A stretch of DNA of 64,000 bases from Bacteroidaceae bacterium. Its GTDB lineage: Bacteria > Bacteroidota > Bacteroidia > Bacteroidales > Bacteroidaceae. The notes under the pieces were generated by a model. It was not told the DNA's origin. It saw only the letters and a list, made by a program, of their open reading frames with translations, and did not search any database. Below are positions 1 through 20,775 of the stretch, piece after piece. Position 1 is the first letter of the stretch, and each line of letters opens with the position of its first letter. The position numbers and the translations under genes are program-made. Location of the stretch: the NCBI GenBank assembly GCA_045534785.1, contig JAZSKJ010000032.1, positions 18,777-82,776 of the forward strand, given 5' to 3'.

Positions 1-3000
1 CGGCAGCCGAAGTGATGTAAGTACGGAACGGAACGGTAGTAACCGTGCTGTTGGCTTCATCATTCTGGAACTTGTCGCCAGCCTGGCTGAGCAGGTAAGT
101 GGTTGCACCGGCCAGAGTCTTGGTCTGATAGGTAGGCATGTAGGTGTAACCGTCAGTTGCATTCCGGGCGGCTGCTGCATACTCATCATCAGTTACCAGA
201 ATGGTTGTACCTTCGTCTGCCGATGCGAATGTAATGTACTGCTTTCTCAGCTGTGCAGGTACGCCATTTGGCTCGGTAGCTGTATATGATACAGTCCATT
301 CTCCACTCAGGTCAAACTCATAGAAACGCTTGCCCGGGAATCCTATCAGATAAGGAGTACCTGCTGCATAGAGCGGATAATCGCTGTACTCGCGTGCAAT
401 TTTGTAGTAATTCTTCTGGTACTCGTCATCGTTCACATCGGGTCCGGCATTATCGGCCGATTCGCTGTTCCAATGGTAGTAATAATCCCAGAGGAATGTA
501 TTGTTGACAGTCTTGCCTCCATTGGTATCCTTTTCGGGAGCACTAAACATAGCCGTGGTTGTTGTAACCTCATTCTCTGTTGTTGTGCTCACACTGCTCA
601 GATTACGCAGCCAGTATTCATGTCCGGTCTTGCTGCCCTGGTAGAAGTGTGTTATCTCACCCTTCTGATGGGTAGTGACATACTTGGCAGTAAACGGCAG
701 GCTTACGGTCTCCCAGCCGGCATCCATGCTCTCAACGTATGTTGAAGGAACGCGCTGATACCAGATGTAGGAGTTGGTAGGTATCTTGTAGCTGATAGGA
801 GCGTTGAAGTCTTGCCTGTCAACCAGGAAGTGGTTGTTAACGCTCACATAACCATTGTCGGTCAGTCTTACCAGATGACCCTTGATATCATCAATAGCTC
901 TCTGCTCAACAGGTCTCACATTCTTATAACCGTCGTCAAACCCGAATATCAGATCTGCATCCTTATGATAGTAGTTGAGCAGTACGTTATTCTGATCCAT
1001 ATTGTCTGTAAAGTAAACCAGCATGTTCTGGGTCAGGCCATCAGTTATATAGCTGCTCAAGCCGTCAAAGTCAGTGATAGGTGTAAAGAACGCATTGTTA
1101 TTGGTACCCAGGCTCCACTCAGTATCATTGTTCTGGGTGAAGTCTATTGCTGTCATAGACTTGTGGATATCAATGTTGTCATAAGTATCCTTCAATGCTG
1201 CGTAACGGTTAAAGTAAACGCTGCTCTTTTCCTTGCTCTGATAGTAGGCCGGAGTCCTGAATACCCTGTTGTCCGATATACCGTTTGTCAACAGTCCGGA
1301 AGACTTTATAATAACTGCAGGATGTACGTCATGCTCACCGCCACCGTTTACTATATCATAGGTCAGGTTCTGACCGAAGTAGATGTAGTCATCAGGCCAG
1401 ATAGGCGAATAAGGCTCGGTACCCTTGTCACGTATATCGGGATCTTCAGGAATAGAACCCTTTGCATAGATGAAGTCAGGATTATAGTAACGCTGCTCAA
1501 CATAATTCTCAACATAATTGGTCGGATTATTGGGATAATATGCTGTAGTAGGTTCAGCGTTAGCTACATTAATGTCTGCTTTATTCCAAGCTGTGTATGG
1601 TGTCGTGTTGGCAGGAGCCTCAGTAGCATCCTTATACAGGTTGTCATAGTAGCGCTTGTTCAGGTAGAACAGGTTGAGGTTATATGCCACTTCACCGTCC
1701 ATGAACGCCTTAAGATCCTTCTTATGGGTGTCTCTGTTGGCAAGTGTAGCGCTATTGTAGTCATTGTAGTAATAACTGTTGATAACCTTAGCCTCATCGT
1801 TTTCTCCACTATAGCCAATGATAGGATAGGTGCTTGAACTTACCGTACCGTCAGTGAGAACCCAGCAGTTAACAGCCTTACCTGAGCCGACATCTGCTAT
1901 ACCGGGTCCGGTAAATGTACCGGTTACACCTAAGTTATAGACGCTGCCGCAAAGTGAGCCGAACAGTGAGTGGTCAAGTCCGCTTATGGTATGACCGTCA
2001 CCATGCAGAGTACCTTCAAAGCAATCGCTTGCATCACCTACAGGTGTCCATCCTGAGGTCAGATTGATATCACCGTCCAGTATAAAGTCAAGTCTCTGTC
2101 CGTTGGATAAATTGCTAACGCTTGAATTTGAAGCGGTGCTCTTGATCCGATTGAAGAACTCATTGAACTGAGCAAGCTCTGAAGCATCCTTGATGTAAAT
2201 CTTAGGATTGCGCTTTCCTTCCTTGACAGCCTCGTCCAGATACATGTAGTCATTAACGGTATGAGATTCCGGCTCATGTGTATCGGGATTAAGCGTAGTC
2301 TCAACATGAGTGCTGCTCATTACCTTATCCATGCGGTGGTAGTTGGCCACTTTGAACGGTACGGCGTTAGAGTAGGTCTTACCCAGATATGTCTTGGTGT
2401 AGTAAGCTACCAGATAGCCGTCCTGATACCAGTACATAGGAGTCTGGTTATTGGTATAAGGTATACCGTTCTTGTGCTGGTCAGCATCTTCCGGAGTGGT
2501 GAACATCTCCCATCCGCTACCCAGGACCTCGTATGCACCCGGAGTAATGCTAGGTATCTTAAGACCAACGGTGGTACTGGGCAGTACAATAGAGGGAGCC
2601 GACAACTCATCAATGAACGGAACGCCGCTCTTGAAGTTGATGTGTATGTTTACAATGTGCTGCTCTGAGATAGGCTCTATATGCTGTCCGCTCTCGTCAC
2701 TCTCCTCATAATCATACTGGTACATAACTGTTATGACCTTACCCTTTGAGAGGTTGAATATGTCAGACTCTCTTGTTACATAAAGGGTTGAAGTTCCTAT
2801 AGGTGCTGTACCCTGAACGCTGAAGTTTCCTTTCTGCAGGTTAGGCAAATCATTGTAGCCGTCGGCATTCAATATGAATCCTACCGGTACAGTTTGTCCG
2901 CTCGTCTTGGTAACTGAAATACTACTACCGGCTACCGAAGTAACGGCATGTCCCATACCATTCTCATTGACTTCATAACTGTCACGGCAGTAATAGTAAG

Positions 3001-6000
3001 TGTTATTCTGAACACCGGCTTGAGCGGCTGTGAATGTTACAACATCAATATTACTCTTCTGCTCTCCCAGACCATTATAAAATTCCTCTGTTATGGTCTT
3101 TCCTGCTATATAGAACGAACCTCCCTTGGAGAAGCCTTTCTTTATGATGTAGTAGGTGCCAGCCTGATCTACCTTAATTGGCGAGTAATGATACTGCTCA
3201 TTAGGAATAGTCTCATACTCTTCGCGTGTCAATACCCGGTTTGGTGAAATTGTCACGTTTTGATTAGCCTTATTGGTATATGTCAGATTTTCAGTTCCAT
3301 TATATGTGGCAGTGTAGTCAATGGATTGGGTCTGTGAATATAATATCTCCTGATTACCCTCCTTGCTGTCATACAGTGTGGTGTTACCCTTGGTGTAGTT
3401 GGGGTCAATCAGAACATCAAATGCATCATAGTTGAATTCAAAATGAGCACGGTCAGCCTCTGACATTGAACTCCAGGTCTCTATGCCGCGGTAGTTCTTA
3501 CCTGTCTCAAAGTAATCACCTCCATAATTTCCTGCGGTAGTGCAGTACCATGCTACGTCAAAGTAATCACCGTAATTAGCGTCGGGTACTGATACCAGTT
3601 CATTGTATCGTGAGTCGGTAATAAGCTCTCCGTAGTAGATGTACTCATCGTCTCCCAAATCAAGTGTACTGGTGCATAAGTATGCCTCAGCCACATTGCT
3701 GCTTATAGATGACCATTCGGTATCAGTGAACTGAGTCCTGTAGACTGCAGCTCCCGGATTGAGTTGCTTGTCGCCTTGAACAATCTTGGACGTTACTACA
3801 TAAGCTCTCTGCACAATGGCCTGATTATTATTGGGCTTATTGGTTATACTTTCATACGTATCATGTATTGCTCCGGGAATGATATCGCCTTCCTCGTATT
3901 GGCGCTGACCGTAAACGCCGCTTTGGCCTGTTTTAACGGTATAAGTGGGACCCTCATGGTAAAGTGCCTTTTGCTCTGCAGTGAGGTCATTATAATCTTT
4001 AAGATTTACTTTGCCTGTACCGTTCATCCGAGTGTGGTATTTGTCCCAAACTATCGGGTTGGCCATATCATAAGTAAGTATGAAACCTGTGTTATGACTC
4101 AGATTGTTTGACGGACGGAATATGTAGTCAAATGTTACATTAGTTTTGGCGTCAACGTTATATACGGTCTTGTTGGCAGATGCGGTCTTCAGAGCCTGAT
4201 ATTCTGAAGGCAGCATAGTATATCCCTTAGAATAGGGCGTGCCGTCTATTGTAGCATTGGCAATAGTAGTGTAAGTCTCCGGTACAAAAATGTTCTGTTC
4301 GGGTGCGCTTAGCAGATACCAATCCCAGTAGCTGATTGTATCGTTGAGCTTATATGTTACGTTGTTTACTGATACCGTCTTCTTTGATCCGTCACGCAGA
4401 TTCTCTGTCTGACCGCTATTGCTGTAGAATGCATATAGGTTAGGCTGAACATCCTTAAGCTGAATCTTACCGTGAGATTGTGCAGTGATGGTAAGAGGTA
4501 TGTTCACAGATTCGGCATAAGCGTTGGCCGATCCTGTGTATGCCGATATGTACTGGTCATATACATAGATGCTACCCTTTATGTACCAATAGTGTGCAGG
4601 CGAACCGCCATCAAGGTAACTGTTCATATCAGGATAGCAGTCATCCACAATCTGTTTCTGCGGATGTATGAAGTTACCCGATGTCTGGAGTTCAGAAGAA
4701 CTGGTAGGAGTTCCATACTCAAATGCCTTGTTGGTTACGGCTTTTTGGTGAGCTTGAGTGGAACCTACGGTCCTGGGCAGATTGTATTGTGACAGAATGG
4801 TTTGCTCGAGTCCTGTAGTGATCCTGCTGCCATGGATATTCTTGGCATATACATAACCGCCGCCCAAGCCGGTCATCACATTAATAAGGTCAAGTTCAAC
4901 CACACCGGTAATGGGTCCCCAGATCTTATTGTCTTTGGTACTCTCCTCTGTGGTCAGTTCCAGATATACACCCGATGCCAAAGCCACCTTGTTGGCACTT
5001 GCACCGTTGTTGCGTCTGCGCTTATCCTTATAATATTTTGTTTTCCAATTCTCGTAAGTCTGACCGTTAAATTCCGGCTTATAGGTTTCTTCATCCTGAT
5101 TGTCAAATTGGCGCGCGTCATTATAGTAATCAACATCACTCGTAAGAGCTCCCATGTGATTCACCACGCTGTAGATACCGAAATAGTTTCCGTGAACCTT
5201 GTCTTCCTTAGTATTATCGCCGGCTATTGATGCAACTTGGTTCAGCGATACCTCGCCTACACGGTTGATTGTGTAGTCTGTATAGTCAACTATTTCAGGT
5301 ACGCGGTCGCGTGCACCCTGAAGCACCATACGGCTTCCGAATATTCCGCAGAAATCAGCACGCTGGATTGTATTGAGCAATCGGCCCGCATAGATTGATA
5401 CGAAACCTTTCTTTACCCAATAGTGTTCGTTATGATATTGCTCTGCAGTGCCGGTAAACAGTTTGTCATAGTCTTCGGCCGTAAGTTCATCAATTTGTGC
5501 TTCATAAGGATTTCCATTCTTGTCCGTACAGTCCTGAACACACAAGTACTTGAGTTCATAATAGGCCTTCTCACGGTCAGTCATTTGTTCGTACTGCTCG
5601 ATATCAATCTTGTCGGGCTGGCTGAAATAGTCTGTACCGTAGTTTGTGATATTGAGCTCACGGTATCCGTCAACAAGAGTCAGGTTTCCGTCGCCGTAGA
5701 TACCGCCTATATGCTCGGTACCAATGGTTATAAGGTCGCGGTTATATACATCCCGCAAAACGGCAGTTGCGTTTCCAAGAACGGTATTGGTGTTGGCATA
5801 AACCACATCACTACCGGCAGATACGTTACCTCCTGCAAATATGGCGTTACGAATGATTATACCGTCAATGCTAACCTTAGCCCATTGTGCTTCATCATAA
5901 TTCTTATTTCTGAGCTTGTCCAGCTCATCTGTGGGAACATATTCCCCCTTTGCGTATGTAGTACCATCTATGGTGATACCGCCATCAGCTTTAACCAGGG

Positions 6001-9000
6001 CATAAGGCTCAACAATTACACGGCTATCGTCTGTGAGCTTGTTCTCATTTTTATCGCCGTCTACTTTGAAAGTAGTTCCGTTGTGCTCATAATAATAACC
6101 CTCAGTGCTGCTTTCCGAATTGAATCCGTTGCCTGTTGCAACTTCACCTTTTTTGCCGGAACCGGAGTATACAAAACCCAGGTCACCGCCACCGAATACG
6201 TTGCCGTATCCCTGCGCCACGTTGTCAGTAGTTCCTATCTCACCACCACGAATAAATACCTCGGTCTGGCCGAATACATAACCCTTGCAACCCCAGTCTG
6301 AACTGCTGATCTCTTCGTCTGACATGAACTTGCGGCCATCTCCTCCCCAACTGTCAATACCGCGGCCTCCGCCGAATACGTTACGCATTACGTGGCCTCC
6401 GTACATCTCAACATGAGTGTGACCGGCTTTGGATATATGGGCCGGGCCGTTTATAAATTGAGTACCTCCGGTGGCCGGCGTATTACTGACATTACCACGC
6501 CCTATGGGGCCTACCTCGCCGCCACCATACAGGTTGCCGCGTACAGTTCCGCCGTACATCTTGACAACGGTTTGGTCAACAAGGCTGTTTATTACATATC
6601 CTCCGCCAAACACATTGCCGCTCTTGTCCAGGTCATTTACATCTTGGTCATTCAGTTCCTCAACATAATCATTATCCTCATACCTGAAACCTACATGGCC
6701 GTTGTTGACAGTAACTTTTGCCACACCATATATGGTTCCACCTTCACCGCCGCCGTATGCGTTACGTGAAATGGCGGGATCACCACCGTATATGCCGTTT
6801 ACATTTAACTTGCCAATAATGACATTTGACTCACCGTCTATATCATTAGCGATACTTGATGTGGTTATATCGTGCTTGCCCACACTGCCACGCCAGCCGC
6901 CTCCATAGACATTACGTACAGAGCCGCTCTCTATATATGCATATGTCTTTGCTACAAAATTCTTTGTACCGTATTCGTCCATAACAGGACCGCTTGAACC
7001 GGCTGCATAAATATCTCTGCTTACTGTACCTCCAAACAGACCGATGAATGTTGTACCGCTAACTGTTGCGGTAGCACCAAGACCGGCTCCGTAACAATAG
7101 CGTGCTGCATATGCACCTTTCTTTATGTTTACGTTGGTGTTGGTCTTGATGACTTGCTCTTCATCATCTACAGTTATGGTATGTGGATGAACAAGTGCAT
7201 TGTCAAGACCGTTATCGGTATAGAAGTCTCCCAATGATTTATAAACCGTGGCTGTTGTGTTTTCACCGGCGTTCTCAGAAGCATCGGGTGTATAGGTGTT
7301 CCATGCGGCAACAGACTCTTTGTTGAGTACTCTTCCGGCATTACCGCCGCCATAAACTTCGCTTACACTTGCGCCATCTTCCAGGTTGATCTCGGTGTAT
7401 TGTGACCATGTTCCGGCGCCCTTGCCGGCTCCATAAATAGTTGCTGTATAATTACGGGGGTTACCATCTTCGGAATATACAGGAGACCAAATGTTTACTC
7501 GTGTATACAGAGTACGGCGTTTATTGTTGTTGCCGCCATATATGGCCTCATGGATGACTGCATTGCTGCTGTTGAAGTTTACGTTTGACTCATATACATC
7601 GCAAGGTGCACTGTTGCGGATTCCGTAAGAACCGCCGAACAACTCATCTGCAATCAAGGTGGAACCTGTGGGTACGTTTACTACGGTTCTACGTGTTATA
7701 CCCTCTTCATAGCTTCCTCCGTATACGGTAGATAATTCGCCGTGAACAAGGTCAATTACAGCAGATACGGACTCTACGGTAAAGTCCGGATTTTCTGTTA
7801 AATTGGGATTTACTCCCATACCAAGTCCGGAGAATGCACCGGCACCGAATATCTCTGTAGAGGTGAACTTCTTGGAACCGTCAGGTATGTTAACGTAAAC
7901 ATAACTGCGGTCCTGCATCATATCCTGCTTAACGTCGGCCTCTGTTGCGCCGGCATAACCCTGACCTGCACCGAATACCTTGGCTATGGTTGTGCTTGAT
8001 GTGCTATTGGGCATGAAGTTTACAAAGGCACTGGCAAGATAAGGATACGGATTGTTGTTGTGATAACTGTCGTCGGCTGCTAATTTGTGTAACTCATAGC
8101 TATCAGCCGAATAATTGTAGTTACCGCAAGAACCGCCGAAAATGTAGTTGCCTATTTTACCGGATATGTACTCGACATAAGCCGATGCCTGGGTTACATA
8201 AGTGTTCTCAGGATGTGATGAGTCGTAGTTGTAAACCTTGGTTATTTCACTGACTTTATTATAGAAATTGTTTGATCCCAGAATGCTGCCGCCAAAGTCA
8301 TTGCCGCCGAATACGTTGTTCTTTATCTCGGGCGATCCCGCTGTGCCGTCAGCTGCGGTACCTAAGAATGTCTGTGCATAGCCCGAAATGTTAGCGTTGC
8401 AGGCACCTCCGAATGAATCATATACCTTTCCTCCGGACAGATAAACAGATGTGTTGCCATTTACGGCTCCTTCAAATCCGCCGCCGTAAATTTTTCCAAT
8501 CTCACCACCTGTCATGTTGATGGTAGTGTTCTTTGTTACTCCACCTCTAAGACCGCCGCCGAATACCTTAAGGGCGCGTCCGGTACCAACTTCATCACTG
8601 GTTATATTGATGGTGGTATTGCCTATTACTGTTGCTTCAGGACCGAAACCGCCGCCAAATACGCTGAACGGGGTGTTGAACAGATTGACCTGATCGGCAA
8701 GATATGTATCCATGTCCGAGCTTATGGTCGAATTTGACGGAATGATATCCTGCTGTAGGTCTATTAATACATTACCGTTAATGATACCGCTGTTGAAACA
8801 GCCTCCGAATATGTTACCCTGATTACCCGAAGAGGCATTGTCAGGATTGGCAAATATAACACCGTTTACTGTCAGATGAATCTTCAGTTCATCAGCACGG
8901 GCAGGCGTAGCAGTAAAACCACCTTCATGGCGCGCATTAAGGTTTTCGGTAGCCTTAACGAATGCATCGTTACAACCGCCCACCAGTTTATGGGTGATAA

Positions 9001-11182
9001 TGATAGGATAGTCAAATTTAATGTCGGTCAATGCGGCCGATGTCATGCTGCCCACATTACCGCCGCAGAAGAACGATCCTATGTGTGCATAACGCGCGTC
9101 GTTGGCTGCAACATATGTGTTGGGGTATCCGGCATCAAAACTGTATTTAGGCATACATGAAACAGCTGCGCCCTCCATGTAAGAATTGAATATGTCTGAG
9201 TTGGTAAGATCCAGGTTGCTTATTGTCCTGTAGGTTTCAAGTGTGCCGTTTGTACTCTTGTCAACCATATCAATACCGTTACTGCCCAGGAATACATTGT
9301 CAATGGTAATATATTCACCAAGAACAAGCTTGATGTCGTCTGTTACTGTGGCGCTGTTACCTCCTCCGTAAACGGTATTTACGACTACAGGATTGGCCTG
9401 AGTTCCAGCCACACGGATGTATGATTGGGCGGTGTGGGGTCTGAAAGCATTCAGGGCAGCCACACTGGCGGTGTTCTGCGTATTGTCAAAATCTCCGTAA
9501 TAGAAATCACCATAGGTGGGGTCATCAGCCTTTGAAGATTTATCGGTATAGACGTAAGAACCGTTACCGCCACCATATACATTACCGCCTATTGAACTGC
9601 GTATGTCAATGGCATTACCTCCCAGTACATTACCTGATATATCATTACCGCCATAGACATTGTTTATGGTTCCGGCCGAAATACGTATATGTGCTGAATA
9701 ACCTGCCGGGAATCCGTAGGTGGCTCCGGGAGTTGTTGCCACTCCGTTAATCTTAGGAGTTACATTGGCACGACGGCATCCTCCATAAACGTTGTTTACG
9801 GTAAGGTTGGCGCTGTTAAGGTCAAGCATAAGACCGTCCCTATATGTCATGTCGCCTGCATCTCCGCCGGAGTAGAGGGCGTTGATGCTGGCTCTTTCCA
9901 GATGCCATTTTGGGTGGATGTACATTTCGGCCTGCTTGTTACCTCCGAATACGCGGTCAAACTGGTAAACCGGAGTGGCAGTGTAGTCAGCCGATGAACC
10001 GGCTGTTTCATCAAAGGTATATGCAGTCTTATCTACATCAATGTTGATGCCTAAGCTGCGCAACTTATCCTGCTTGAATTCATATCGGTCTGATGTGTTG
10101 TTGTCCAGACAGATTACGGTCTCCTGGGTTACCGTAGCCTTGTTACCGCCACCGTACACGTAACCGTAATTACCGCCCTTGAGCTCCAGATATGCGTAGC
10201 TTACCTCAGGCTTGTTGGTTACGGTAAAAGGAGAAGCTGGTGTGTCCCAGCGGTTCTCGGTGCTGTTCAAGACTCTGTCGGTAAGAGCATCTACCGTGTA
10301 ACCTCCTGTTGCAGGAGTATATTCATAGTCTCCGTTTCCACCGCCGAATACCTGGGCTACATAAATCCTGTTGGTGGAATTGGCCGGTATGGCACTGGAA
10401 TGCACAAAAGCGTTCCACTTCTCATCTATACCATAAGACTGGGTTGCGGCTTGACTCAGAATGGAGGGTGGTTCCAAACCACTGATCCAACTCCAGCTGT
10501 TAGTGAATGTCGGAATGGTGATTTCACCAGCTATATCATTACCTCCATATACTGCACCGATAATAAGGTCATTCGTGGCATTCGCACCGTCAATATTAAC
10601 AAAACTGTAGCCGTAAACATTAGCCACACGTGCGCCTCCGTATACATCGCCCTGAATATCACCTCCCTGAAGGGTTACGTTTGTGGTACCCATAAGGTCG
10701 GCCTTGTTACCGCCGCCGTATACGTTCTGTACCAGAGTACCTCCCTTAATGTCAACATGACTGTGTCCGAATACATATGCGCTCTCACCGTCGCCTGCGC
10801 CAAACAGACCGCCGTGAATGGTTCCATTCCAATCAGTGTGGCCTACAGAACCTCCGTTTACGGTTATCTGCGTGTTGCCGAATGTACGTCCGTTCTCACC
10901 GCCGCCGAATACTGTACGGACCGAACCGGCGTTTATCTCAATATTTGTAGTTGTACCGGTCTGGAGGTTATCTTCTATCTCAACGCTTGTCTTTGTTTCC
11001 TCGGCATCATCGACATAATGTGTACCTACATGGCCCTGCTTACCTCCGCCGTAGACATCACCTTTAATGGTTATTGTCACATCAGCAAATAGGGGGGTAA
11101 CCTGCAGGGATATGAACAGCAATACCGCTCCAATCATTCTGAGCGGTCGGCCATTTGTATGTTTACGGGAGAATATATTCAT
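1..11182 (-). CDS. Giant secreted beta-helix-repeat / GLUG-motif adhesin-like protein. Only the first 3,727 codons are present; the 3' end lies beyond the left edge of the window.
   Basis: ATG at 11182-11180. Hand translation gives MNIFSRKHTNGRPLRMIGAVLLFISLQVTPLFADVTITIKGDVYGGG, a signal peptide with no lipobox Cys. I read the frame (codon first positions with p mod 3 = 1) by eye to position 2 without meeting a stop. I translated it exactly at 11041-11182, 8551-8569 (KVFGGGL), 6184-6205 (GNVFGGGD), 1921-2098 and 4-58. The only minus-strand track ORFs inside this span (2059-2307, 2407-2613, 4954-5139) are in another frame. The plus-strand track ORFs here are shadows. It is absent from the track because no stop lies in the window. 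Function is inferred from repeat type only. Confidence 0.8.
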   Translation of the reverse strand, partial: MNIFSRKHTNGRPLRMIGAVLLFISLQVTPLFADVTITIKGDVYGGGKQGHVGTHYVDDAEETKTSVEIEDNLQTGTTTNIEINAGSVRTVFGGGENGRTFGNTQITVNGGSVGHTDWNGTIHGGLFGAGDGESAYVFGHSHVDIKGGTLVQNVYGGGNKADLMGTTNVTLQGGDIQGDVYGGARVANVYGYSFVNIDGANATNDLIIGAVYGGNDIAGEITIPTFTNSWSWISGLEPPSILSQAATQSYGIDEKWNAFVHSSAIPANSTNRIYVAQVFGGGNGDYEYTPATGGYTVDALTDRVLNSTENRWDTPASPFTVTNKPEVSYAYLELKGGNYGYVYGGGNKATVTQETVICLDNNTSDRYEFKQDKLRSLGINIDVDKTAYTFDETAGSSADYTATPVYQFDRVFGGNKQAEMYIHPKWHLERASINALYSGGDAGDMTYRDGLMLDLNSANLTVNNVYGGCRRANVTPKINGVATTPGATYGFPAGYSAHIRISAGTINNVYGGNDISGNVLGGNAIDIRSSIGGNVYGGGNGSYVYTDKSSKADDPTYGDFYYGDFDNTQNTASVAALNAFRPHTAQSYIRVAGTQANPVVVNTVYGGGNSATVTDDIKLVLGEYITIDNVFLGSNGIDMVDKSTNGTLETYRTISNLDLTNSDIFNSYMEGAAVSCMPKYSFDAGYPNTYVAANDARYAHIGSFFCGGNVGSMTSAALTDIKFDYPIIITHKLVGGCNDAFVKATENLNARHEGGFTATPARADELKIHLTVNGVIFANPDNASSGNQGNIFGGCFNSGIINGNVLIDLQQDIIPSNSTISSDMDTYLADQVNLFNTPFSVFGGGFGPEATVIGNTTINITSDEVGTGRALKVFGGGLRGGVTKNTTINMTGGEIGKIYGGGFEGAVNGNTSVYLSGGKVYDSFGGACNANISGYAQTFLGTAADGTAGSPEIKNNVFGGNDFGGSILGSNNFYNKVSEITKVYNYDSSHPENTYVTQASAYVEYISGKIGNYIFGGSCGNYNYSADSYELHKLAADDSYHNNNPYPYLASAFVNFMPNSTSSTTIAKVFGAGQGYAGATEADVKQDMMQDRSYVYVNIPDGSKKFTSTEIFGAGAFSGLGMGVNPNLTENPDFTVESVSAVIDLVHGELSTVYGGSYEEGITRRTVVNVPTGSTLIADELFGGSYGIRNSAPCDVYESNVNFNSSNAVIHEAIYGGNNNKRRTLYTRVNIWSPVYSEDGNPRNYTATIYGAGKGAGTWSQYTEINLEDGASVSEVYGGGNAGRVLNKESVAAWNTYTPDASENAGENTTATVYKSLGDFYTDNGLDNALVHPHTITVDDEEQVIKTNTNVNIKKGAYAARYCYGAGLGATATVSGTTFIGLFGGTVSRDIYAAGSSGPVMDEYGTKNFVAKTYAYIESGSVRNVYGGGWRGSVGKHDITTSSIANDIDGESNVIIGKLNVNGIYGGDPAISRNAYGGGEGGTIYGVAKVTVNNGHVGFRYEDNDYVEELNDQDVNDLDKSGNVFGGGYVINSLVDQTVVKMYGGTVRGNLYGGGEVGPIGRGNVSNTPATGGTQFINGPAHISKAGHTHVEMYGGHVMRNVFGGGRGIDSWGGDGRKFMSDEEISSSDWGCKGYVFGQTEVFIRGGEIGTTDNVAQGYGNVFGGGDLGFVYSGSGKKGEVATGNGFNSESSTEGYYYEHNGTTFKVDGDKNENKLTDDSRVIVEPYALVKADGGITIDGTTYAKGEYVPTDELDKLRNKNYDEAQWAKVSIDGIIIRNAIFAGGNVSAGSDVVYANTNTVLGNATAVLRDVYNRDLITIGTEHIGGIYGDGNLTLVDGYRELNITNYGTDYFSQPDKIDIEQYEQMTDREKAYYELKYLCVQDCTDKNGNPYEAQIDELTAEDYDKLFTGTAEQYHNEHYWVKKGFVSIYAGRLLNTIQRADFCGIFGSRMVLQGARDRVPEIVDYTDYTINRVGEVSLNQVASIAGDNTKEDKVHGNYFGIYSVVNHMGALTSDVDYYNDARQFDNQDEETYKPEFNGQTYENWKTKYYKDKRRRNNGASANKVALASGVYLELTTEESTKDNKIWGPITGVVELDLINVMTGLGGGYVYAKNIHGSRITTGLEQTILSQYNLPRTVGSTQAHQKAVTNKAFEYGTPTSSSELQTSGNFIHPQKQIVDDCYPDMNSYLDGGSPAHYWYIKGSIYVYDQYISAYTGSANAYAESVNIPLTITAQSHGKIQLKDVQPNLYAFYSNSGQTENLRDGSKKTVSVNNVTYKLNDTISYWDWYLLSAPEQNIFVPETYTTIANATIDGTPYSKGYTMLPSEYQALKTASANKTVYNVDAKTNVTFDYIFRPSNNLSHNTGFILTYDMANPIVWDKYHTRMNGTGKVNLKDYNDLTAEQKALYHEGPTYTVKTGQSGVYGQRQYEEGDIIPGAIHDTYESITNKPNNNQAIVQRAYVVTSKIVQGDKQLNPGAAVYRTQFTDTEWSSISSNVAEAYLCTSTLDLGDDEYIYYGELITDSRYNELVSVPDANYGDYFDVAWYCTTAGNYGGDYFETGKNYRGIETWSSMSEADRAHFEFNYDAFDVLIDPNYTKGNTTLYDSKEGNQEILYSQTQSIDYTATYNGTENLTYTNKANQNVTISPNRVLTREEYETIPNEQYHYSPIKVDQAGTYYIIKKGFSKGGSFYIAGKTITEEFYNGLGEQKSNIDVVTFTAAQAGVQNNTYYYCRDSYEVNENGMGHAVTSVAGSSISVTKTSGQTVPVGFILNADGYNDLPNLQKGNFSVQGTAPIGTSTLYVTRESDIFNLSKGKVITVMYQYDYEESDESGQHIEPISEQHIVNIHINFKSGVPFIDELSAPSIVLPSTTVGLKIPSITPGAYEVLGSGWEMFTTPEDADQHKNGIPYTNNQTPMYWYQDGYLVAYYTKTYLGKTYSNAVPFKVANYHRMDKVMSSTHVETTLNPDTHEPESHTVNDYMYLDEAVKEGKRNPKIYIKDASELAQFNEFFNRIKSTASNSSVSNLSNGQRLDFILDGDINLTSGWTPVGDASDCFEGTLHGDGHTISGLDHSLFGSLCGSVYNLGVTGTFTGPGIADVGSGKAVNCWVLTDGTVSSSTYPIIGYSGENDEAKVINSYYYNDYNSATLANRDTHKKDLKAFMDGEVAYNLNLFYLNKRYYDNLYKDATEAPANTTPYTAWNKADINVANAEPTTAYYPNNPTNYVENYVEQRYYNPDFIYAKGSIPEDPDIRDKGTEPYSPIWPDDYIYFGQNLTYDIVNGGGEHDVHPAVIIKSSGLLTNGISDNRVFRTPAYYQSKEKSSVYFNRYAALKDTYDNIDIHKSMTAIDFTQNNDTEWSLGTNNNAFFTPITDFDGLSSYITDGLTQNMLVYFTDNMDQNNVLLNYYHKDADLIFGFDDGYKNVRPVEQRAIDDIKGHLVRLTDNGYVSVNNHFLVDRQDFNAPISYKIPTNSYIWYQRVPSTYVESMDAGWETVSLPFTAKYVTTHQKGEITHFYQGSKTGHEYWLRNLSSVSTTTENEVTTTTAMFSAPEKDTNGGKTVNNTFLWDYYYHWNSESADNAGPDVNDDEYQKNYYKIAREYSDYPLYAAGTPYLIGFPGKRFYEFDLSGEWTVSYTATEPNGVPAQLRKQYITFASADEGTTILVTDDEYAAAARNATDGYTYMPTYQTKTLAGATTYLLSQAGDKFQNDEANSTVTTVPFRTYITSAA
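1921..2098 (-). other. GLUG-like motif segment within the giant ORF
   Basis: Exact hand translation: QRLDFILDGDINLTSGWTPVGDASDCFEGTLHGDGHTISGLDHSLFGSLCGSVYNLGVTG. The F-x-G-T-L-x-G-x-G-H-T-I-S-G-L ... LFG ... N-L-G-V pattern matches my memory of GLUG-motif modules in IgA-protease-type and large bacterial surface proteins. Not HMM-verified. Confidence 0.45.
5330..11060 (-). repeat. Degenerate protein-level repeats with a [VILM][YF]G[GA]G turn motif (parallel beta-helix-like). About 1,900 aa of the giant ORF; boundaries approximate.
   Basis: I saw roughly 40 motif copies by eye (VYGGGK, VFGGGE, VYGGGN, IYGGGF, LYGGGE and similar), spaced about 20-60 aa apart. On the plus strand they appear as recurring gccgcc / accgcc / tccgcc followed by (a/g)ta or gaa. 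They produce the PPPY strings in shadow ORFs 6471-6668, 6702-6908 and 10818-11018. The last recognisable copy is about 5330-5360 (DFCGIFGS). Confidence 0.6.
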
Positions 11183-11199
11183 ATCGGATAGTCAGAGAT

Positions 11200-12357
11200 T
11201 TATTCAATGGGTAGTTTTGTGTCTAAGTCATCATCACTGAGCTGGTACAGATATGACGGCACTACATTGATCTTGACGGCATAACTGGTTCCAGCTCTGG
11301 GTCTTCCGCTGCCGGTAGGCAATATCTTGCCGTTTCTGGCTGTCTGGTCTTTTCTTACCAGACGGTCTTTGTAATTCTCATCGGTAAGAGGATCAGTGCC
11401 GGTATCACCTGTGTAAACGTTATAGGTTACCTCAAGTTCTACGGGCAGGTCTGTCTTGGGCAGATAGCAGAAACTGCCGGCTGTCTGATAGATATAGCTT
11501 TCCACTTCGTTACCATTCCAGGTTACAGTGTTTGATGCATTCAGAACAATGGAATCATTTGGTAAAGGCAGGCTCACCTCAAGATTCTTTGATGTGCAAT
11601 CACCCCAGTTAGGATTAGGGTTGGCACCGAAAGTCAGGCTCATGCTTGAGCTGCCTTGGCTTGAAACCATCTTGATTCCGGTTATCACTACGGTGCGCAG
11701 CTTGCTGTATTTCTCGTGCAGCGTGAAACTCAGGTCAACCTTTGAGTAGAGATGGTTCATGGCCAGCAGTACCTTATCATTCGGTATGTTGTTGGAGATC
11801 TGGCCCAGGTTGAAGGTTCCGGCTACAGGAGTGGGGTCATTGTAGACACCGTTCTGAGCCACAGATCTGGCTGCTGCAATTGATATGGTGGGGTCACCCA
11901 GGGTTACAATATCAATTGGGTTTACATTGAGTGTAAAACTGTTGCCAACTTTAGTAAATGTGCCTCTGGTACTGCTTATACCTCCGGGATGGAAGGCAAA
12001 CATATAGTAACTCTTGCCGCCTTCGGCCTCAACGCTTGAGTACCATTTGCCACCCGAACGGCGGAACTCACCTTCCTTAAGAGTTGTGCCTGATGTGTGT
12101 TCCTGAGCCCAGGCATAAATTAGCTCGCCATCCTGGGGAGTGTAAAGACTGTAACCATCAATAAGGGCTCTGGTGCTGATCTCCATGCCGGCCTGACGGA
12201 AAACGGGAAGAATCTTGAACGGGCCAACACTGGTCTCGTTGTAGAGATTATCCTTCTCAGTTTCAGTCTGGCATGAGACTAAGCATATAAACAGCAACAG
12301 CAGAGTGTTGACAACTCTGCTTATTGAGTGGTGTTTATTATAGCCCTTTTTTATCAT
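11200..12357 (-). CDS. Fimbrillin-like (type V pilin family) lipoprotein, divergent member immediately upstream of the giant gene
   Basis: 385-aa ORF. It has a signal peptide plus Cys (LFICLVSCQ), a candidate maturation site EISTRALI, and the family motif MNHLYSKVDLSF. Its C-terminus differs from the rest of the array (INVVPSYLYQLSDDDLDTKLPIE). The gap to the giant ORF start is 17 bp. Confidence 0.75.
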   Translation of the reverse strand: MIKKGYNKHHSISRVVNTLLLLFICLVSCQTETEKDNLYNETSVGPFKILPVFRQAGMEISTRALIDGYSLYTPQDGELIYAWAQEHTSGTTLKEGEFRRSGGKWYSSVEAEGGKSYYMFAFHPGGISSTRGTFTKVGNSFTLNVNPIDIVTLGDPTISIAAARSVAQNGVYNDPTPVAGTFNLGQISNNIPNDKVLLAMNHLYSKVDLSFTLHEKYSKLRTVVITGIKMVSSQGSSSMSLTFGANPNPNWGDCTSKNLEVSLPLPNDSIVLNASNTVTWNGNEVESYIYQTAGSFCYLPKTDLPVELEVTYNVYTGDTGTDPLTDENYKDRLVRKDQTARNGKILPTGSGRPRAGTSYAVKINVVPSYLYQLSDDDLDTKLPIE

Positions 12358-12395: not shown

Positions 12396-13553
12396 TTACC
12401 AATTGTGCACATTGGTAGGAATTTCTCCACCATCAGCCCAATTTTTTACCTGTACGGACTCGAGTTCAATACCGCTGGAGGCAGTAAATTTGAGTGTAAT
12501 CAGGTAAGAATAGCCGGGAAGTGTCTGGCCTGGATATGTGGCTGTCACCTCATTCTGGTTATTCTTAACTTGGGTTGTAAGGGTAACTCCATGAGCTGTT
12601 CCTTGAAGTGGAGAATTCTCTATGGAATAGTCTGCCTGGAGGTCTAACCCGTTCCACAGATTACATGGAACTGTAAACCACGAGCATAATGTCTGGAAAT
12701 TCTCAGGCTCGGAATCGGGATCTTCATCAAACCATGTTTCTTCGGGCAGGATGACAGGATCTTCCATCAACTCCTTACTTAATCCTTTCTGGACAGGACT
12801 GCTGTACTGATTGGTTGTGTTGTTCTCACTGAAATTTCTGGTAACTACAGATTTACCGTCTGCCTTGAGTACAATAGGATTGTCTTCGTCAGGTGACTTG
12901 AACGTAAGTTGATTTACTGTTACCTTAGCTTTGGCACCAACATAGTACGCCCTAACCTGCACGCGCGACAAAATATGCTCGAACTGGAAGTTTACGGTAC
13001 CGCCGGCAAATACCAGGGTTGCATCGTCCTCTGTTGACTTGTATTTGCCGCTCCTGGCTGCTACCAGAAGGTCTGTGCCTGTGGATGTTGGCTGCCAGTA
13101 GGGAATGTTGTTGATTGTAAGAACTTTTCCGGTCTCGCTCACAAAGGGGGTTCCGTTATTGGGGTCTTCGTTGGGAAGATAGGGCCAATAGGCTGCAAAC
13201 TGATAGGTTGCATTGGGGTTGGAGTCCCAGTATCTGCGGGGTGTGTAAGACCAGGTGGTGCTCTCGGTGTTCTGGTCGGGGTATACCGGAATGTTGTTGA
13301 ACTGGCGGTACGGAGTCTTGTTGGGGATGGTCTTGTAACCGTATACTCCGAATCCGGTGCTGTTGGTTATACTCAGGCTTATAAGCGAGGCTTTATTGGT
13401 AACAAGAGCCTTGGTGCCTACCGATGTGGTACCAATCTGTATCTCGTCATACATATATGCCTTGTCTGTACGGCTGCAGGAGGATATGATTCCTCCTGTG
13501 AGCACGGCCAGCAATATGACGTGTAACTGTACTTTAAACCTAAGTCTTAGCAT
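12396..13553 (-). CDS. Fimbrillin-like (type V pilin family) lipoprotein
   Basis: 385-aa ORF. Lipobox GGIISSCS. Candidate maturation site uses Lys (TSVGTKALV). Family motif FEHILSRVQVRAYY. C-terminus ends IELESVQVKNWADGGEIPTNVHNW. Confidence 0.8.
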   Translation of the reverse strand: MLRLRFKVQLHVILLAVLTGGIISSCSRTDKAYMYDEIQIGTTSVGTKALVTNKASLISLSITNSTGFGVYGYKTIPNKTPYRQFNNIPVYPDQNTESTTWSYTPRRYWDSNPNATYQFAAYWPYLPNEDPNNGTPFVSETGKVLTINNIPYWQPTSTGTDLLVAARSGKYKSTEDDATLVFAGGTVNFQFEHILSRVQVRAYYVGAKAKVTVNQLTFKSPDEDNPIVLKADGKSVVTRNFSENNTTNQYSSPVQKGLSKELMEDPVILPEETWFDEDPDSEPENFQTLCSWFTVPCNLWNGLDLQADYSIENSPLQGTAHGVTLTTQVKNNQNEVTATYPGQTLPGYSYLITLKFTASSGIELESVQVKNWADGGEIPTNVHNW

Positions 13554-13576
13554 GTTTATAGTTGTAAGCTTATTTC

Positions 13577-15118
13577 TTATCTCAAAACATCGTAGTCAAT
13601 GGAGTATATCTCCTCCCATTCCGTTACTTTTGCGGTGAACTCAATGAATGCGTCCTCCTCTTCGCGGGCAGGTGAGATTACGCCTGTATCGGGGTCTTTC
13701 TCAAGCTGAACCCAACCGTCATCCTCGTCTATATCGCCGTCACCGTCAGTGTCTATGTGGATCAGGATAACATCCTTGCCGTCGGGGTTGTCGGGATTGC
13801 CGTCACTGGGATCCTTCTCGTTGTCTCCGCCGGGCTCCTGCTGGGTTTCATTATCACCGTCCACATTATCTATATGTCCGTCGCCGTCGCGGTCTATACC
13901 GCCTTCCAGCTTGCCGTCATTGTCAATATCCTCCCATACTACCGGATAGGTTACCCATGTATCAGGAATTCCGTCACCATCGGTGTCCTCCCAAACCTTT
14001 ATCTGGTCGGGCTCATCGGGGTTGTACTTCATTACGCCCTCGCTGGGGGTATCATCTGTCTTGGTTATGGTATCGCCGGTTACGGGGTCCACTATTATAC
14101 TTCCGTCACCATCGGCATCCCAAACGCGGGTTGAGCGGGTGGGGTTGAAAGCCAGGGTGTAGTTGTACTTGTAGTTAGGCTCCCATTTTGATATTATGCT
14201 GTTTTTTGATCCTGATGTTCCGGTTATGCCGGCCAGACGGATTCCTTTCTTGGTGAATGTCTGTGATGTGCCATCCTTGTAAGCTACGTGGAATATGGCA
14301 TCCAAGGTTACATCTACGGGCGATGATGCTGTGCTGAATAGTGACTGCGGTATCATCAGGTAGTCCTTGTAGATGGCTGTGGATGTGGTGCTGAGCAGCG
14401 TGTTGGTTACAGTGGGTATCTGCATCAGGCCTGACTGGTTGCTCCAGGCGCCTACTGCCATTTCCTGACTCCATCCGGTCTGCTGGTAGCTTCCGGTGTT
14501 CTTTACGTTGTTGAACTTGATGCTGGTAAGCGTTATGTTGTCCACACCGTCGGTGTTCATTCCACTGCCTATCTTGGCGTACACGTTAACATTACTCAGT
14601 ATGTGGTGGAAATACATCTGTACGGTGTTGAACGGTGATACGTTAAGCCTTTCACTGATCATCAGGTCTGTCTGCTGGTCAGGATCATTGGGCGTAGTAT
14701 ATGTACCTATGGTGATGTAACGGTTATCATCCTCACTCATGGTGTAGAGTGTCTTGGAGTAGGGGAATACTCCGTAGAACATATAGGTTGAGCCTATGTT
14801 CCAGAGCTTCTTGTTATCATAGGTCCAGACGCTGTCGGATGATACGTATCTTACATCCTGGTTGTTGAATATTACATCTATGGTACCGTCAGTGTTCTGG
14901 ATGCCCCATACGGCCATAGTGTCGCCCACTACGAATCCGCTGTTACCGCTGGTCTTGGCGGCACGGGTCATCTTGTTTACAATGTTTCCAAATTCAATGT
15001 AAGCATTCTCGTGGGTTGCATAAGGATCTATCTCATGCAGGATTCCGGACTGCTGGCATGACGACAGAAGTGCCACGCCTGCTATTATGCTCAGTTTAAT
15101 CTTGGTCATTGTGTTCAT
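13577..15118 (-). CDS. Fimbrillin-like lipoprotein with a C-proximal Asp-rich DxDxDG (thrombospondin type-3-like) calcium-binding-repeat insert
   Basis: 513-aa ORF. Lipobox ALLSSCQ, site VNKMTRAAK, motif FHHILSNVNVYAK. After the pilin body (...KWEPNYKYNYTLAFNP) comes about 155 aa of acidic repeats. The family-type terminal strand FIEFTAKVTEWEE follows. Confidence 0.85.
   Translation of the reverse strand: MNTMTKIKLSIIAGVALLSSCQQSGILHEIDPYATHENAYIEFGNIVNKMTRAAKTSGNSGFVVGDTMAVWGIQNTDGTIDVIFNNQDVRYVSSDSVWTYDNKKLWNIGSTYMFYGVFPYSKTLYTMSEDDNRYITIGTYTTPNDPDQQTDLMISERLNVSPFNTVQMYFHHILSNVNVYAKIGSGMNTDGVDNITLTSIKFNNVKNTGSYQQTGWSQEMAVGAWSNQSGLMQIPTVTNTLLSTTSTAIYKDYLMIPQSLFSTASSPVDVTLDAIFHVAYKDGTSQTFTKKGIRLAGITGTSGSKNSIISKWEPNYKYNYTLAFNPTRSTRVWDADGDGSIIVDPVTGDTITKTDDTPSEGVMKYNPDEPDQIKVWEDTDGDGIPDTWVTYPVVWEDIDNDGKLEGGIDRDGDGHIDNVDGDNETQQEPGGDNEKDPSDGNPDNPDGKDVILIHIDTDGDGDIDEDDGWVQLEKDPDTGVISPAREEEDAFIEFTAKVTEWEEIYSIDYDVLR
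13655..14125 (-). repeat. Asp-rich DxDxDG repeat insert (TSP3-like / EF-hand-like Ca-binding loops), residues about 332-488 of the 513-aa pilin-like protein
   Basis: Repeat copies seen: WDADGDGSIIVD, WEDTDGDGIPDTW, WEDIDNDGKLEGGIDRDGDGHIDNVDGDNE, IDTDGDGDIDEDDGW. The plus-strand shadow ORFs here (13749-13949, 13757-14134) come from the same low-complexity coding. Confidence 0.7.
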
Positions 15119-15144
15119 AGTTATATGTGGTTTCCGGGCAGTTA

Positions 15145-16932: not shown

Positions 16933-16965
16933 TTTTTGATTGTATTTTATTTTGTTTGTTTTCGT

Positions 16966-18075
16966 TTATAACTTATTGCTCTTGCCTGGCTCCACAGATC
17001 CTTCCCATTCATTGTTATCCCATATCTTGGCGTCGGCATCGAATGTTATTATGTCTGGACCTATCATAAGGTGCAGGATATAGCTGTTGGCGCACCTGAA
17101 AGCACTAAAGGCCTCCTTGAGGCCTATACGTGTATCAAAATGCTCTATGCGTCCACCTGGGTAGTGCATAGAGTAGTCAACAAGTATCATCTGGGTGCTG
17201 TCCACCTGCTGCGGCAAAAGCAGTGACTCTATCACGCAACTTCCGGTTGAGTCAATCAGGGCTCCGTTGGCGCTGCACAGAGCGTAGGTGGGATTAATGG
17301 TGTCAATCTGCCACTCAGTTACGGACTCATCGGCCTCAATACCTACCACAGGACTGTGGTCAAGTATCTGAGTAAAGTCTCCCTTGCTGTAGAACCGGCC
17401 TATGCTCAGGCTGTCTATCACAACTTGGATTCCGCCCTCACTAATGGTCTTGTTAAGGGTTACCATTACAATAAGCTTGGCCATGATGTGCTGCATATTG
17501 AAGGTAACCAGGCTACCTATCTGTTTCGGGTTAACCTTCTTGCCCTCACGGTCAACGAGCCAATCTACATCTGTCACACTGCCGAAAGTGCCACGGGGAT
17601 ACGGCTCGGGACCCGCACTCATGGTGTTGCTGCCCTCCAGTACCACATTATTTATATTAATGTGGCCGGTGGTCTCATCGATAGAGACCGATGCACCCGG
17701 TACTGTTGCAGAATTGGGTGCATAAGCATAGAATCTGTAAGAACTGCCCTTCTCCCAATAGCGTGCGGGAGAGTAGGTCCAATCCTCATGGTCCGGATCA
17801 TAGCTGACCAGATTGTCATTAAACAGACGAATCTCGGGTCTGCCGCTTGCTGTCTGCCATCCCCAGACTCCCATGGTATTAGTGTGCTGGCTAAGCAGGC
17901 TGAGAGCGCGTGTTCTGACAGGATTATCTATTACACCGTTGCCGAAACTGATAGCCAGACTCTCATTGCCACCCTCATCATTTAGATGGCTTACAAAACT
18001 TTCGTACTGACATCCTGCCAGCAGCATTACCGCTGCCAGCAACCCCAGTACTCTATGTCTTGCTACATTCAGCAT
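16966..18075 (-). CDS. Fimbrillin-like (type V pilin family) lipoprotein
   Basis: 369-aa ORF. Lipobox MLLAGCQ, site NPVRTRALS, motif MQHIMAKLIVMV, terminal strand IITFDADAKIWDNNEW. Confidence 0.85.
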   Translation of the reverse strand: MLNVARHRVLGLLAAVMLLAGCQYESFVSHLNDEGGNESLAISFGNGVIDNPVRTRALSLLSQHTNTMGVWGWQTASGRPEIRLFNDNLVSYDPDHEDWTYSPARYWEKGSSYRFYAYAPNSATVPGASVSIDETTGHININNVVLEGSNTMSAGPEPYPRGTFGSVTDVDWLVDREGKKVNPKQIGSLVTFNMQHIMAKLIVMVTLNKTISEGGIQVVIDSLSIGRFYSKGDFTQILDHSPVVGIEADESVTEWQIDTINPTYALCSANGALIDSTGSCVIESLLLPQQVDSTQMILVDYSMHYPGGRIEHFDTRIGLKEAFSAFRCANSYILHLMIGPDIITFDADAKIWDNNEWEGSVEPGKSNKL

Positions 18076-18095
18076 TCTTGTTTTTTAATCCTTTG

Positions 18096-18103
18096 CAAAA
18101 TTA
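18096..18103 (-). promoter_or_regulatory. Candidate Bacteroides-type -7 promoter box (TAATTTTG = TAnnTTTG) ahead of the 16966-18075 gene
   Basis: Plus-strand caaaatta at 18096-18103, about 20 nt upstream of the ATG at 18075. It sits in a 193-bp gap that also contains a hairpin. An 8-mer match alone is weak evidence. Confidence 0.3.
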
Positions 18104-18210
18104 AAAAATACACACACTCTCGCTCTCACTCTGCTGCCCCACTCATTGCAAACTGCATTTTTCCTTTTATAAATATCATTGGTAATATAGCGCTCACGCT
18201 CTCTTGGTGA

Positions 18211-18236
18211 CCATCGGGGCGATCAAACCCCGGTGG
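18211..18236 (-). terminator. Intergenic hairpin downstream of the 18269-19534 gene
   Basis: ccatcgggg / ccccggtgg form a 9-bp stem with an 8-nt loop. One position is T:G on the plus strand, which is an A:C mismatch in the minus-strand RNA. There is no clear U-tract. Confidence 0.35.
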
Positions 18237-18268
18237 CCTATTTAAAGAAAAGAGTTAGTCTGATGGGA

Positions 18269-19534: not shown

Positions 19535-19569
19535 GATTGTATTTCTTTATTATTTCGATAAGAAAAACA

Positions 19570-20679: not shown

Positions 20680-20726
20680 AATTCTCTTTTCTTTAAGTTT
20701 TTAGTTAATAATAAGTTTTCTAATTA

Positions 20727-20759: not shown

Positions 20760-20775
20760 GTATTATGAAATAATA

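Follow-up and report, generated by a model that had tools for sequence, protein, structure and literature searches.

The first 11.2 kb of a 64,000-nucleotide (nt) stretch of contig JAZSKJ010000032.1 from a Bacteroidaceae bacterium (the whole stretch is called the window below) is taken up by one giant open reading frame (ORF) on the minus strand, at 2-11182. Our data show that this gene belongs to a large family found in gut Bacteroidales, that its product starts with a signal peptide followed by a long array of glycine-turn repeats, that homologues end in a tail resembling the C-terminal domain (CTD) of type IX secretion system (T9SS) cargo, and that it closes a cluster of lipoprotein genes whose last member is conserved next to it in related loci. 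We lean, if modestly, towards the view that the protein is a T9SS-exported giant beta-solenoid adhesin working together with type V pilus-like proteins. A preliminary description of this DNA had recognised a secreted, probably T9SS-exported protein with unrecognised repeats, and this much stands; it missed the pilus-cluster context and read too much into the GLUG and beta-helix likeness.

From an ATG at 11182 down to position 2 the frame runs through 3,727 codons with 0 stops and is still open at the window edge. The single minus-strand frame first described is thus confirmed, its recomputation over 2-11182 having found no stop. The remaining two minus-strand frames over the same interval contain 359 and 182 stops, and from these stop densities the probability of such an open frame arising by chance is ≤10^-81. 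The ATG is the earliest possible start, because an in-frame stop lies immediately 5' of it at 11192-11194. As had been noticed, the gene is missing from the program-made ORF list, since that list excludes ORFs running off the source; an annotation blind spot, which hid the largest gene of the window for running off the contig, is thereby corrected. Homologous ORFs, taken from stop to stop in related loci, end 94-128 amino acids (aa) past the point at which the window cuts the protein, and therefore its total size, at first given as unknown, can now be estimated by homology at about 3,830 aa, with ∼97% inside the window and ∼100 aa of the C-terminus outside.

The N-terminus (aa 1-33, 11084-11182 on the minus strand) reads MNIFSRKHTNGRPLRMIGAVLLFISLQVTPLFA|DV, in which a basic n-region is followed by a hydrophobic core and an A-x-A-like site (LFA|DV); Cys is absent. 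As read directly from the letters rather than by a predictor, the lack of a lipobox Cys and the A-x-A-like site point to a Sec signal peptide of the signal peptidase I type and not to a lipoprotein, in agreement with the classical signal peptide proposed before. Homologues possess equivalent signal peptides, ending in ...AQAQ|ITIGG.

A pattern scan that took one genome per GTDB species recovered 43 related loci in Prevotellaceae/Bacteroidales metagenome-assembled genomes (MAGs) from rumen or gut, the hosts being cattle, goat, sheep, buffalo, yak, deer and horse. The closest of these loci shows 62% identity and the others 37-47%. Homologous ORFs of 3,386-4,387 aa are intact in more than 30 independent MAGs. 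Aligned with 35 full-length homologues, the window protein stays collinear from end to end; identity per 100-aa block is 35-59%, and variability is confined to the first ∼400 aa. Such collinearity over the whole length argues for a fixed architecture in which the repeats appear to be individually conserved, and against a fast-evolving, drifting array. In three ENA rumen scaffolds (L045, L046 and L047) gene calls break the giant homologue into 2-4 overlapping ORFs, in L046 for example into pieces of 1,515 and 2,457 aa with a 58-nt overlap, whereas the gene is intact in GTDB MAGs; these splits are probably assembly frameshifts.

The family is nearly devoid of annotation. The whole protein has no match anywhere in Pfam, NCBIfam or PDB sequences, and searches for homologues with three of its segments listed no match with an informative Pfam domain. 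Named relatives are recorded as 'hypothetical protein', apart from one NCBI record entitled 'T9SS type A sorting domain-containing protein'. When Pfam was run on 38 family members, no GLUG, Beta_helix, Por_Secre_tail or enzyme family was detected, with the exception of one GDSL fusion.

The mature protein begins with a region of degenerate Gly-turn repeats (aa 34 to ∼1840, 5663-11083, minus strand), in which clear motifs extend to aa 1672. The loose motif [VILMF][YFHWLC]G[GAS] occurs 40 times between aa 43 and 1662, versus 4.3 ± 2.1 in whole-protein shuffles, which bears out the roughly 40 glycine-turn motifs counted at first; the strict form [VI][YF]GGG occurs 15 times. Where the array is regular the repeat unit is ∼26 aa long, with the anchored consensus t.V.i.gG.i.GnVYGGGn.g.V.G. 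Spacing between motifs is irregular (9-106 aa), and the glycine autocorrelation has peaks at lags of 9, 26 and 51 that rise weakly above shuffles. Self-similarity, as seen by BLAST of the protein against itself, is restricted to aa 1 to ∼1725, and no tandem repeats were found at the DNA level. The repeats appear to be old and degenerate and to cover ∼1,650-1,800 aa: the array is real, but by motif range and self-BLAST it is slightly shorter than the ∼1,900 aa initially assigned to it.

An AlphaFold model of aa 1330-2529 has an overall predicted local distance difference test score (pLDDT) of 66, with 80-95 across most of the repeat part. This part (aa 1330-1930) is predicted as all-beta with block pLDDT mostly 80-95, and pLDDT is low at aa ∼1930-2300. 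Based on the sequence pattern and the confident all-beta prediction, the repeats most likely form a long beta-solenoid stalk. Fold and profile searches name no relative for it. The same model found nothing in PDB with Foldseek at E ≤ 1e-3; its weak rows include an RTX beta-roll, PL6 chondroitinase B (E 2.9) and VacA p55 (E 4.8), and the best solenoid rows lie at E 1.3-4.8, while a profile of the repeat region has no relative in PDB at E ≤ 10. The beta-helix type first proposed is plausible, as the 9/26-residue pattern and the confident all-beta segment are compatible with it, but solenoid fold matches all have E > 1. That the repeat family was not recognised turned out to be no oversight: Pfam, NCBIfam and PDB gave no match even with family profiles, and profile searches for a well-characterised family to which the repeats could be assigned returned none.

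Past the repeats, T, Y, N and D abound in the sequence, and self-BLAST detects no internal repeats there, both in line with the earlier characterisation of this remainder. It falls into two regions. The non-repetitive middle region (aa 1841-2930, 2393-5662, minus strand) is conserved in the family at 34-59% identity; its fold is poorly predicted, and its profile finds no relative in PDB at E ≤ 10. It is followed by a conserved C-terminal module (aa 2931-3727, 2-2392, minus strand), which would continue into the CTD beyond the window. This module has a wider distribution than the giant proteins, being found also in shorter stand-alone proteins, such as P0006 of 1,214 aa, and in an esterase fusion, P0044, in which an N-terminal GDSL lipase/esterase domain (PF13472, 3.8e-12) is joined to the same module. 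The fusion speaks for the module as a carrier more than a catalyst and suggests a role in display or anchoring. A word-indexed search with the module gave 154 matches. Searching exhaustively with a profile of the C-terminal 1,140 positions gave 2,326 representatives, one per 50%-identity cluster, at E ≤ 1e-3; of these, 356 reach E ≤ 1e-30, and many are full-length proteins of 3.4-4.7 thousand aa.

For the C-terminal part, the AlphaFold model of aa 2530-3727 has a pLDDT of 81 and a predicted template modelling score (pTM) of 0.68. Foldseek with this model found nothing at E ≤ 1e-3 in PDB and BFVD, where its weak rows are Ig-like domains. Since the searches were run with whole multi-domain models, with which a match at the level of single domains could be missed, we make no claim of a new fold. 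Invariant polar residues of the module are H3060, D3264/D3265, R3306, R3309, D3347, E3622 and D3624 (protein numbering, equal to the A1 position + 2529).

Within the module lies a segment (aa 3032-3190, 1613-2089, minus strand) that contains CFEGTLHGDGHTISGLDHSLFGSLCGSVYNLGV and resembles the short beta-helix of GLUG and Peptidase_M26_N domains. The motif FEGTLHGDGHTISGLDHSLFGSL, originally quoted as GLUG-like from 1921-2098, does sit in that interval, at aa 3055-3077 (nt 1952-2020). Neither Pfam GLUG (PF07581) nor Peptidase_M26_N (PF05342) matches the protein at E ≤ 1, and the two are not matched in the 38 family members at E ≤ 0.1. When the family profile was compared with PDB, it matched one chain, 3n6z_A, which is annotated as 'putative immunoglobulin A1 protease'. 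This match has E 0.003, spans 128 profile positions and covers exactly the CFEGTLHGDGHTISGL...SLFG..CG..YNLGV segment, and what the two share can be written as F-x-G-x-(F/L)-x-G-x-G-(H/Y)-x-I-x-(G/N)-L ... (L/F)FG ... CG ... N(L/V)G. In addition, a search of three sequences with a profile of aa 3020-3200 landed, at E ∼2e-8, on the Peptidase_M26_N sites of other giant proteins encoded downstream in related loci (at 765-868 in locus L021, where Pfam places Peptidase_M26_N at 765-832, and at 643-743 in L037, where Pfam places it at 662-724). As the profile falls on the same sites as the M26_N hits, the segment appears to be a divergent, weakly related member of the non-catalytic beta-helix start of M26_N/GLUG proteins. 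The GLUG-like label is weak: it may stand for a profile kinship to an M26_N-type start, and Pfam GLUG itself is not detected. In contrast to M26_N proteins, the related segment of the giant protein spans only ∼130-160 aa, is below threshold for both Pfam models and is not accompanied by an M26 catalytic domain. It makes up ∼4% of the protein and carries little information on function.

How would such a protein leave the cell? The last ∼60 residues of six homologues were compared with TIGR04183 (Por_Secre_tail), whose curated cut-off is 23 bits: the scores were 24.5, 23.1, 21.9, 21.4 and 14.9 bits, and one tail gave none, so that two of six reach the cut-off and two more are ≤2 bits short of it. 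Pfam PF18962 did not reach its cut-off on these tails (best 14.3 bits). Together, the Sec signal peptide and the TIGR04183-like tails of homologues make Sec plus type A T9SS export the best-supported route, likely for the window protein as well, and the secreted cell-surface protein with probable T9SS export that had been proposed is supported by these tails. The preliminary description had also pointed to a second T9SS cargo at 36981-40895. This ORF encodes a secreted protein of 1,304 aa, and its last 62 aa score 8.4 bits against a home-made profile of the giant-family CTD; it has no Pfam or NCBIfam match at E ≤ 1e-3. The assignment is plausible, but with 8.4 bits and no database match it is weak.

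The genomic context adds what the protein itself does not tell. The giant ORF is the last of 13 co-directional genes that run from 27644 down to the window edge with gaps of 17-311 nt, and it begins 17 nt past the stop of its neighbour. All 12 upstream products have a lipoprotein signal peptide with a lipobox Cys. The cluster opens with a DUF5119 lipoprotein gene (26406-27644, minus strand; PF17145 at 2e-08, lipobox-like NTSC) and continues with ten paralogous genes for type V pilin-like (Mfa_like_1) lipoproteins (12396-26094, minus strand), seven of them matched by PF13149 and all ten related by BLAST. Between these and the giant ORF lies a partner gene for a 385-aa lipoprotein (11200-12357, minus strand), which forms a family separate from the ten paralogues and which hhalign identifies as a divergent fimbrillin-like protein (partner family versus the window fimbrillin paralogues: probability 97.3%, E 1.7e-11). 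The fimbrillin assignment thus comes from Pfam for eight genes and from BLAST paralogy or hhalign for the rest. In most of the ten paralogues an I-x-F...TRA motif places its Arg 26-31 aa beyond the lipobox Cys, and most have a conserved C-terminal strand, I-x-F-D-A-x-V-x-x-W. Export of type V pilins is as lipoproteins; a conserved Arg that follows the anchor strand is their cleavage site (FimA Arg46, Mfa1 Arg49), and C-terminal donor strands mediate polymerisation (PMC13655056). The features seen here are consistent with type V pilins, and such cleavage and strand exchange would be predicted for most of the ten paralogues.

This arrangement is not peculiar to the window. By tblastn, at least 14 loci have a relative of the partner gene right before the giant gene, and a lipoprotein ORF of 330-400 aa occupies this position in ∼33 of 36 loci; in the more distant locus L047 the giant gene is preceded by genes that include one for a FimA/Mfa2-like and one for a DUF3575 protein. 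It is the terminal position in a pilin-like cluster, together with a fimbrillin-like partner in most related loci, that suggests a pilus-linked role. In the scheme we favour, the giant gene would be co-transcribed as the final gene of the 12-gene type V pilin-like lipoprotein cluster, and its product would cross the inner membrane via Sec by means of its signal peptidase I signal peptide, cross the outer membrane via the T9SS by means of a type A CTD encoded just past the window, and be displayed on the cell surface. The predicted layout is a solenoid stalk of ∼1,700-1,800 aa, ∼1,100 non-repetitive aa and a C-terminal module of ∼900 aa with the sorting domain directly after it; the module would contain Ig-like and other beta-rich domains besides the short beta-helix segment of the IgA1-protease/M26_N kind. 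The protein would then be the adhesive part that the T9SS delivers to a type V pilus-like surface structure, as Mfa5 is for Mfa1 pili, and in the rumen or gut it could adhere to plant particles, other microbes or host surfaces.

Mfa5 of Porphyromonas gingivalis is the closest precedent. It is encoded by the last gene of the mfa operon, is the only product of that operon with a T9SS CTD in place of a lipobox, and needs its own CTD and PorU; its position is the pilus tip (PMC8512630; PMC7835359). Its genotypes keep the C-terminal half and the CTD while the N-terminal part varies (PMC8512630), and the protein of ∼1,200 aa has a vWA domain and IgG-like domains stabilised by an isopeptide bond (PMC7835359). 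Like Mfa5, the giant protein is the product of the gene that closes a type V pilin-like cluster, combines a Sec signal peptide with a T9SS CTD (as seen in homologues) whereas the other cluster products are lipoproteins, reuses a conserved C-terminal part with varied N-terminal parts (the 1,214-aa form and the GDSL fusion) and has a presumed adhesive role. Unlike Mfa5, it would reach ∼3,830 aa, with a predicted stalk of Gly-turn repeats and a C-terminal module that is apparently unrelated; the mfa operon has four pilin-like genes, 12 are found here, and their link to a pilus is putative. A giant T9SS surface adhesin acting as an Mfa5-like pilus accessory is a known concept, and what is new are the domains and the scale.

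Several points weigh against this scheme. The CTD of the window protein would lie outside the window and is deduced from homologues, whose scores are at or just below the curated cut-off of TIGR04183 and fall short of that of PF18962; and 64 kb is too little to show the genes of the T9SS machinery. The solenoid fold draws no support from the fold search, in which Foldseek rows have E > 1, and the repeat periodicity is weak, the glycine autocorrelation rising little above shuffles. What speaks for adhesion is architecture, and contact between the giant protein and the pilins is putative. There is no vWA match in Pfam, and the family profiles match no Mfa5 PDB chain (6tnj/6to1) at E ≤ 10; compared with these structures, the giant protein appears analogous to Mfa5 and not detectably homologous. 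Lastly, upstream genes in some related loci have no detectable pilin signature.

The last point speaks for the main rival explanation, in which export is the same but the protein is an autonomous surface fibril, anchored to anionic lipopolysaccharide (A-LPS) after cleavage of its CTD by PorU, and the pilin genes are merely co-located or co-regulated. Cargo with a type A CTD is generally anchored to A-LPS, and the C-terminal module is found outside pilin loci too: P0006 lies beside phage-like genes and other giant surface proteins. Against an autonomous fibril speak the fimbrillin-like gene that is kept directly upstream in ∼33 of 36 loci though the giants share only ∼40% identity, the intergenic gap of 17 nt between partner and giant, and the precedent of Mfa5, which carries a CTD and becomes part of a pilus (PMC8512630). 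We regard it as a real possibility, though clearly a less probable one than the pilus-associated adhesin.

An enzyme displayed on the surface is unlikely. A catalytic site in the solenoid or in the C-terminal module (for example of a polysaccharide lyase or hydrolase with plant cell wall as its substrate, or of an M26-like protease), with the rest as spacer, would fit the many invariant polar residues of the module listed above, and right-handed beta-helices often host lyase or hydrolase sites; there are also weak fold rows of PL6 and pectin methylesterase, the weak link to 3n6z with its 'IgA1 protease' annotation and the GDSL esterase fusion in one family member. Profile searches of Pfam, NCBIfam and PDB, however, detected no catalytic family in any region, neither the M26 catalytic domain nor an HExxH motif was detected, and every match to an enzyme fold has E > 0.3. 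Moreover, the counterpart of the 3n6z-like segment in M26 proteins is their N-terminal region, which is not catalytic, and the GDSL fusion, as said, favours the module as a carrier. The possibility of an enzyme scaffold raised in the preliminary description thus gained no supporting evidence. As for a non-functional sequence (a pseudogene, an assembly chimera or a chance open frame), the splitting of the homologous gene into 2-4 ORFs in some ENA scaffolds could be taken as a hint of it, but 3,727 codons without a stop, intact ORFs of 3,400-4,400 aa in more than 30 independent MAGs along with many full-length representatives, and 35-59% family identity over the whole length leave this explanation with practically no weight, and a pseudogene in particular is excluded by the open frame, the intact homologues and the whole-length conservation.

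Another known system is SprB of Flavobacterium johnsoniae. It has a type B CTD with a PorP-like adaptor and acts in gliding motility. Like SprB, the giant is a very large, repeat-rich protein of the kind exported via Sec and the T9SS as a filamentous surface protein, and it is encoded beside accessory genes; unlike SprB, its family has a type A-like CTD, other repeats without Pfam match and pilin-like neighbours. A SprB-like gliding adhesin was rejected since the CTD is type A-like and SprB repeats are absent. With autotransporter passengers, the GGA[ILV]/FxxN repeats of chlamydial Pmp proteins and VacA p55 the protein shares short Gly turns, hydrophobic beta positions and, in places, a period of ∼25 aa, and with beta-helix passengers and adhesins the presumed role of an extended secreted stalk. 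Unlike these passengers, it has no Pfam match to Beta_helix, Chlam_PMP, PATR or kindred models and no C-terminal beta-barrel translocator. An autotransporter was rejected for lack of a beta-barrel and because the tail, as seen in homologues, is CTD-like. An RTX protein was likewise discarded, as a GGxGxD nonapeptide register is lacking and the RTX fold match lies at E > 1.

Related loci do not end with the giant gene. In all 21 loci examined it is followed by 1-3 further large ORFs (∼700-3,000 aa) on the same strand, and many downstream ORFs carry the same YGGG-type repeats. Three downstream giants that were scanned have CHB_HEX_C_1/Fn3_assoc or Big_2 domains plus Peptidase_M26_N, and one weak RicinB match was obtained; scanned or downstream giants are those at L001 13772-22510, L037 13950-22988 and L021 13557-21008, and those of L044, L045 and L047. 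Some downstream giants have no CTD and end directly in a repeat rung (...NVYGGGNxAxVTGxTNVxIG); CTD-less proteins with a signal peptide are encoded at L021 13557-21008, L003 13285-19764, L007 13518-20321 and L032 13332-16697 and 16703-20278. After such a protein, the following gene (or the giant) opens with a signal peptide and passes straight into a rung. Other downstream ORFs, of 920-1,320 aa, end in a CTD-like tail. The mature N-terminus of the giant protein starts at once with a repeat rung, with no cap, and the terminal repeats of the CTD-less downstream proteins are most similar to its first 200 aa. A speculative reading, to which we give little credence, is that the giant is the cell-anchored base of a multi-protein beta-solenoid fibre with rungs stacked end to end. 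If this were true, the stacked, uncapped solenoids would add up to a fibre longer than 6,000 residues, a distal lectin/Ig/M26_N-like binding head would be exported by piggy-backing on one CTD-bearing subunit, and the fimbrillin-like partner would tie the base of the fibre to a type V pilus-like scaffold, in sum a new hybrid T9SS/type V surface organelle in rumen Prevotellaceae.

Whichever reading applies, the protein is one of a large family without annotation that occurs in herbivore-gut Bacteroidales and has 356 (E ≤ 1e-30) or 2,326 (E ≤ 1e-3) cluster representatives, and three new domain families (the repeat, the middle region and the C-terminal module) can be defined from it. Prevotellaceae are generally regarded as major degraders of fibre and protein in the rumen. 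Attachment to feed particles and to partners could matter for the Prevotellaceae/Bacteroidales of herbivore guts in which the family occurs. If the link with pilins is functional, the Mfa5 principle, in which T9SS cargo joins a lipoprotein-derived pilus, would extend beyond one oral pathogen and become a widespread design with entirely different and far larger adhesins.

Several minor observations concern the upstream cluster. A gene for an AraC-family regulator (27891-29153, plus strand; Pfam HTH_18 and HTH_AraC) is transcribed divergently from it and, judging by position, the sole basis here, is a possible regulator of the pilin-like genes. An identical 26-nt GC-rich hairpin, CCGGTAGGAGTATCACCTCCTGCCGG, lies in two intergenic sites (20731-20756 and 22214-22239), each just 3' of a fimbrillin-like gene, the two genes (20776-22161 and 22253-23563) being paralogues. 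The hairpin may act as an attenuator within the operon that sets subunit stoichiometry, or be a small repeat element. The G+C content is 0.39-0.42 at 18000-24000 versus 0.46-0.49 in the flanking parts of the cluster, and the most similar pilin paralogues (18269-19534 and 20776-22161, 46.6% identity) lie within this low-G+C stretch; taken together, this suggests that the region was recently duplicated or acquired. The scan for promoters and terminators used a sigma-70 consensus, from which Bacteroidota promoters differ, and hence was uninformative.

In L044 (1-9900) the P0006 gene directly follows a phage- or mobile-element-like block with VapE-like, DNA pol A, PD-(D/E)XK, ssDNA-binding protein and MerR genes, and from this neighbourhood the surface-protein genes could be mobile.

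An Rfam scan of the window gave no match. Directly beyond the AraC regulator lies a V-type ATPase operon (29302-36270) with genes for DUF2764/subunit C-like, A, B, D and I subunits. It is followed, past the 1,304-aa ORF, by a minus-strand block at 40932-53906, in which two paralogues of Svx/AvrXca-like putative metalloproteases (40932-42242 and 45192-46976) are accompanied by a SusD-like gene (48919-50829). The adjoining ORF of 1,019 aa (50847-53906) may be the SusC partner of the SusD-like gene, and the whole block may be a locus for protein or glycan utilisation.

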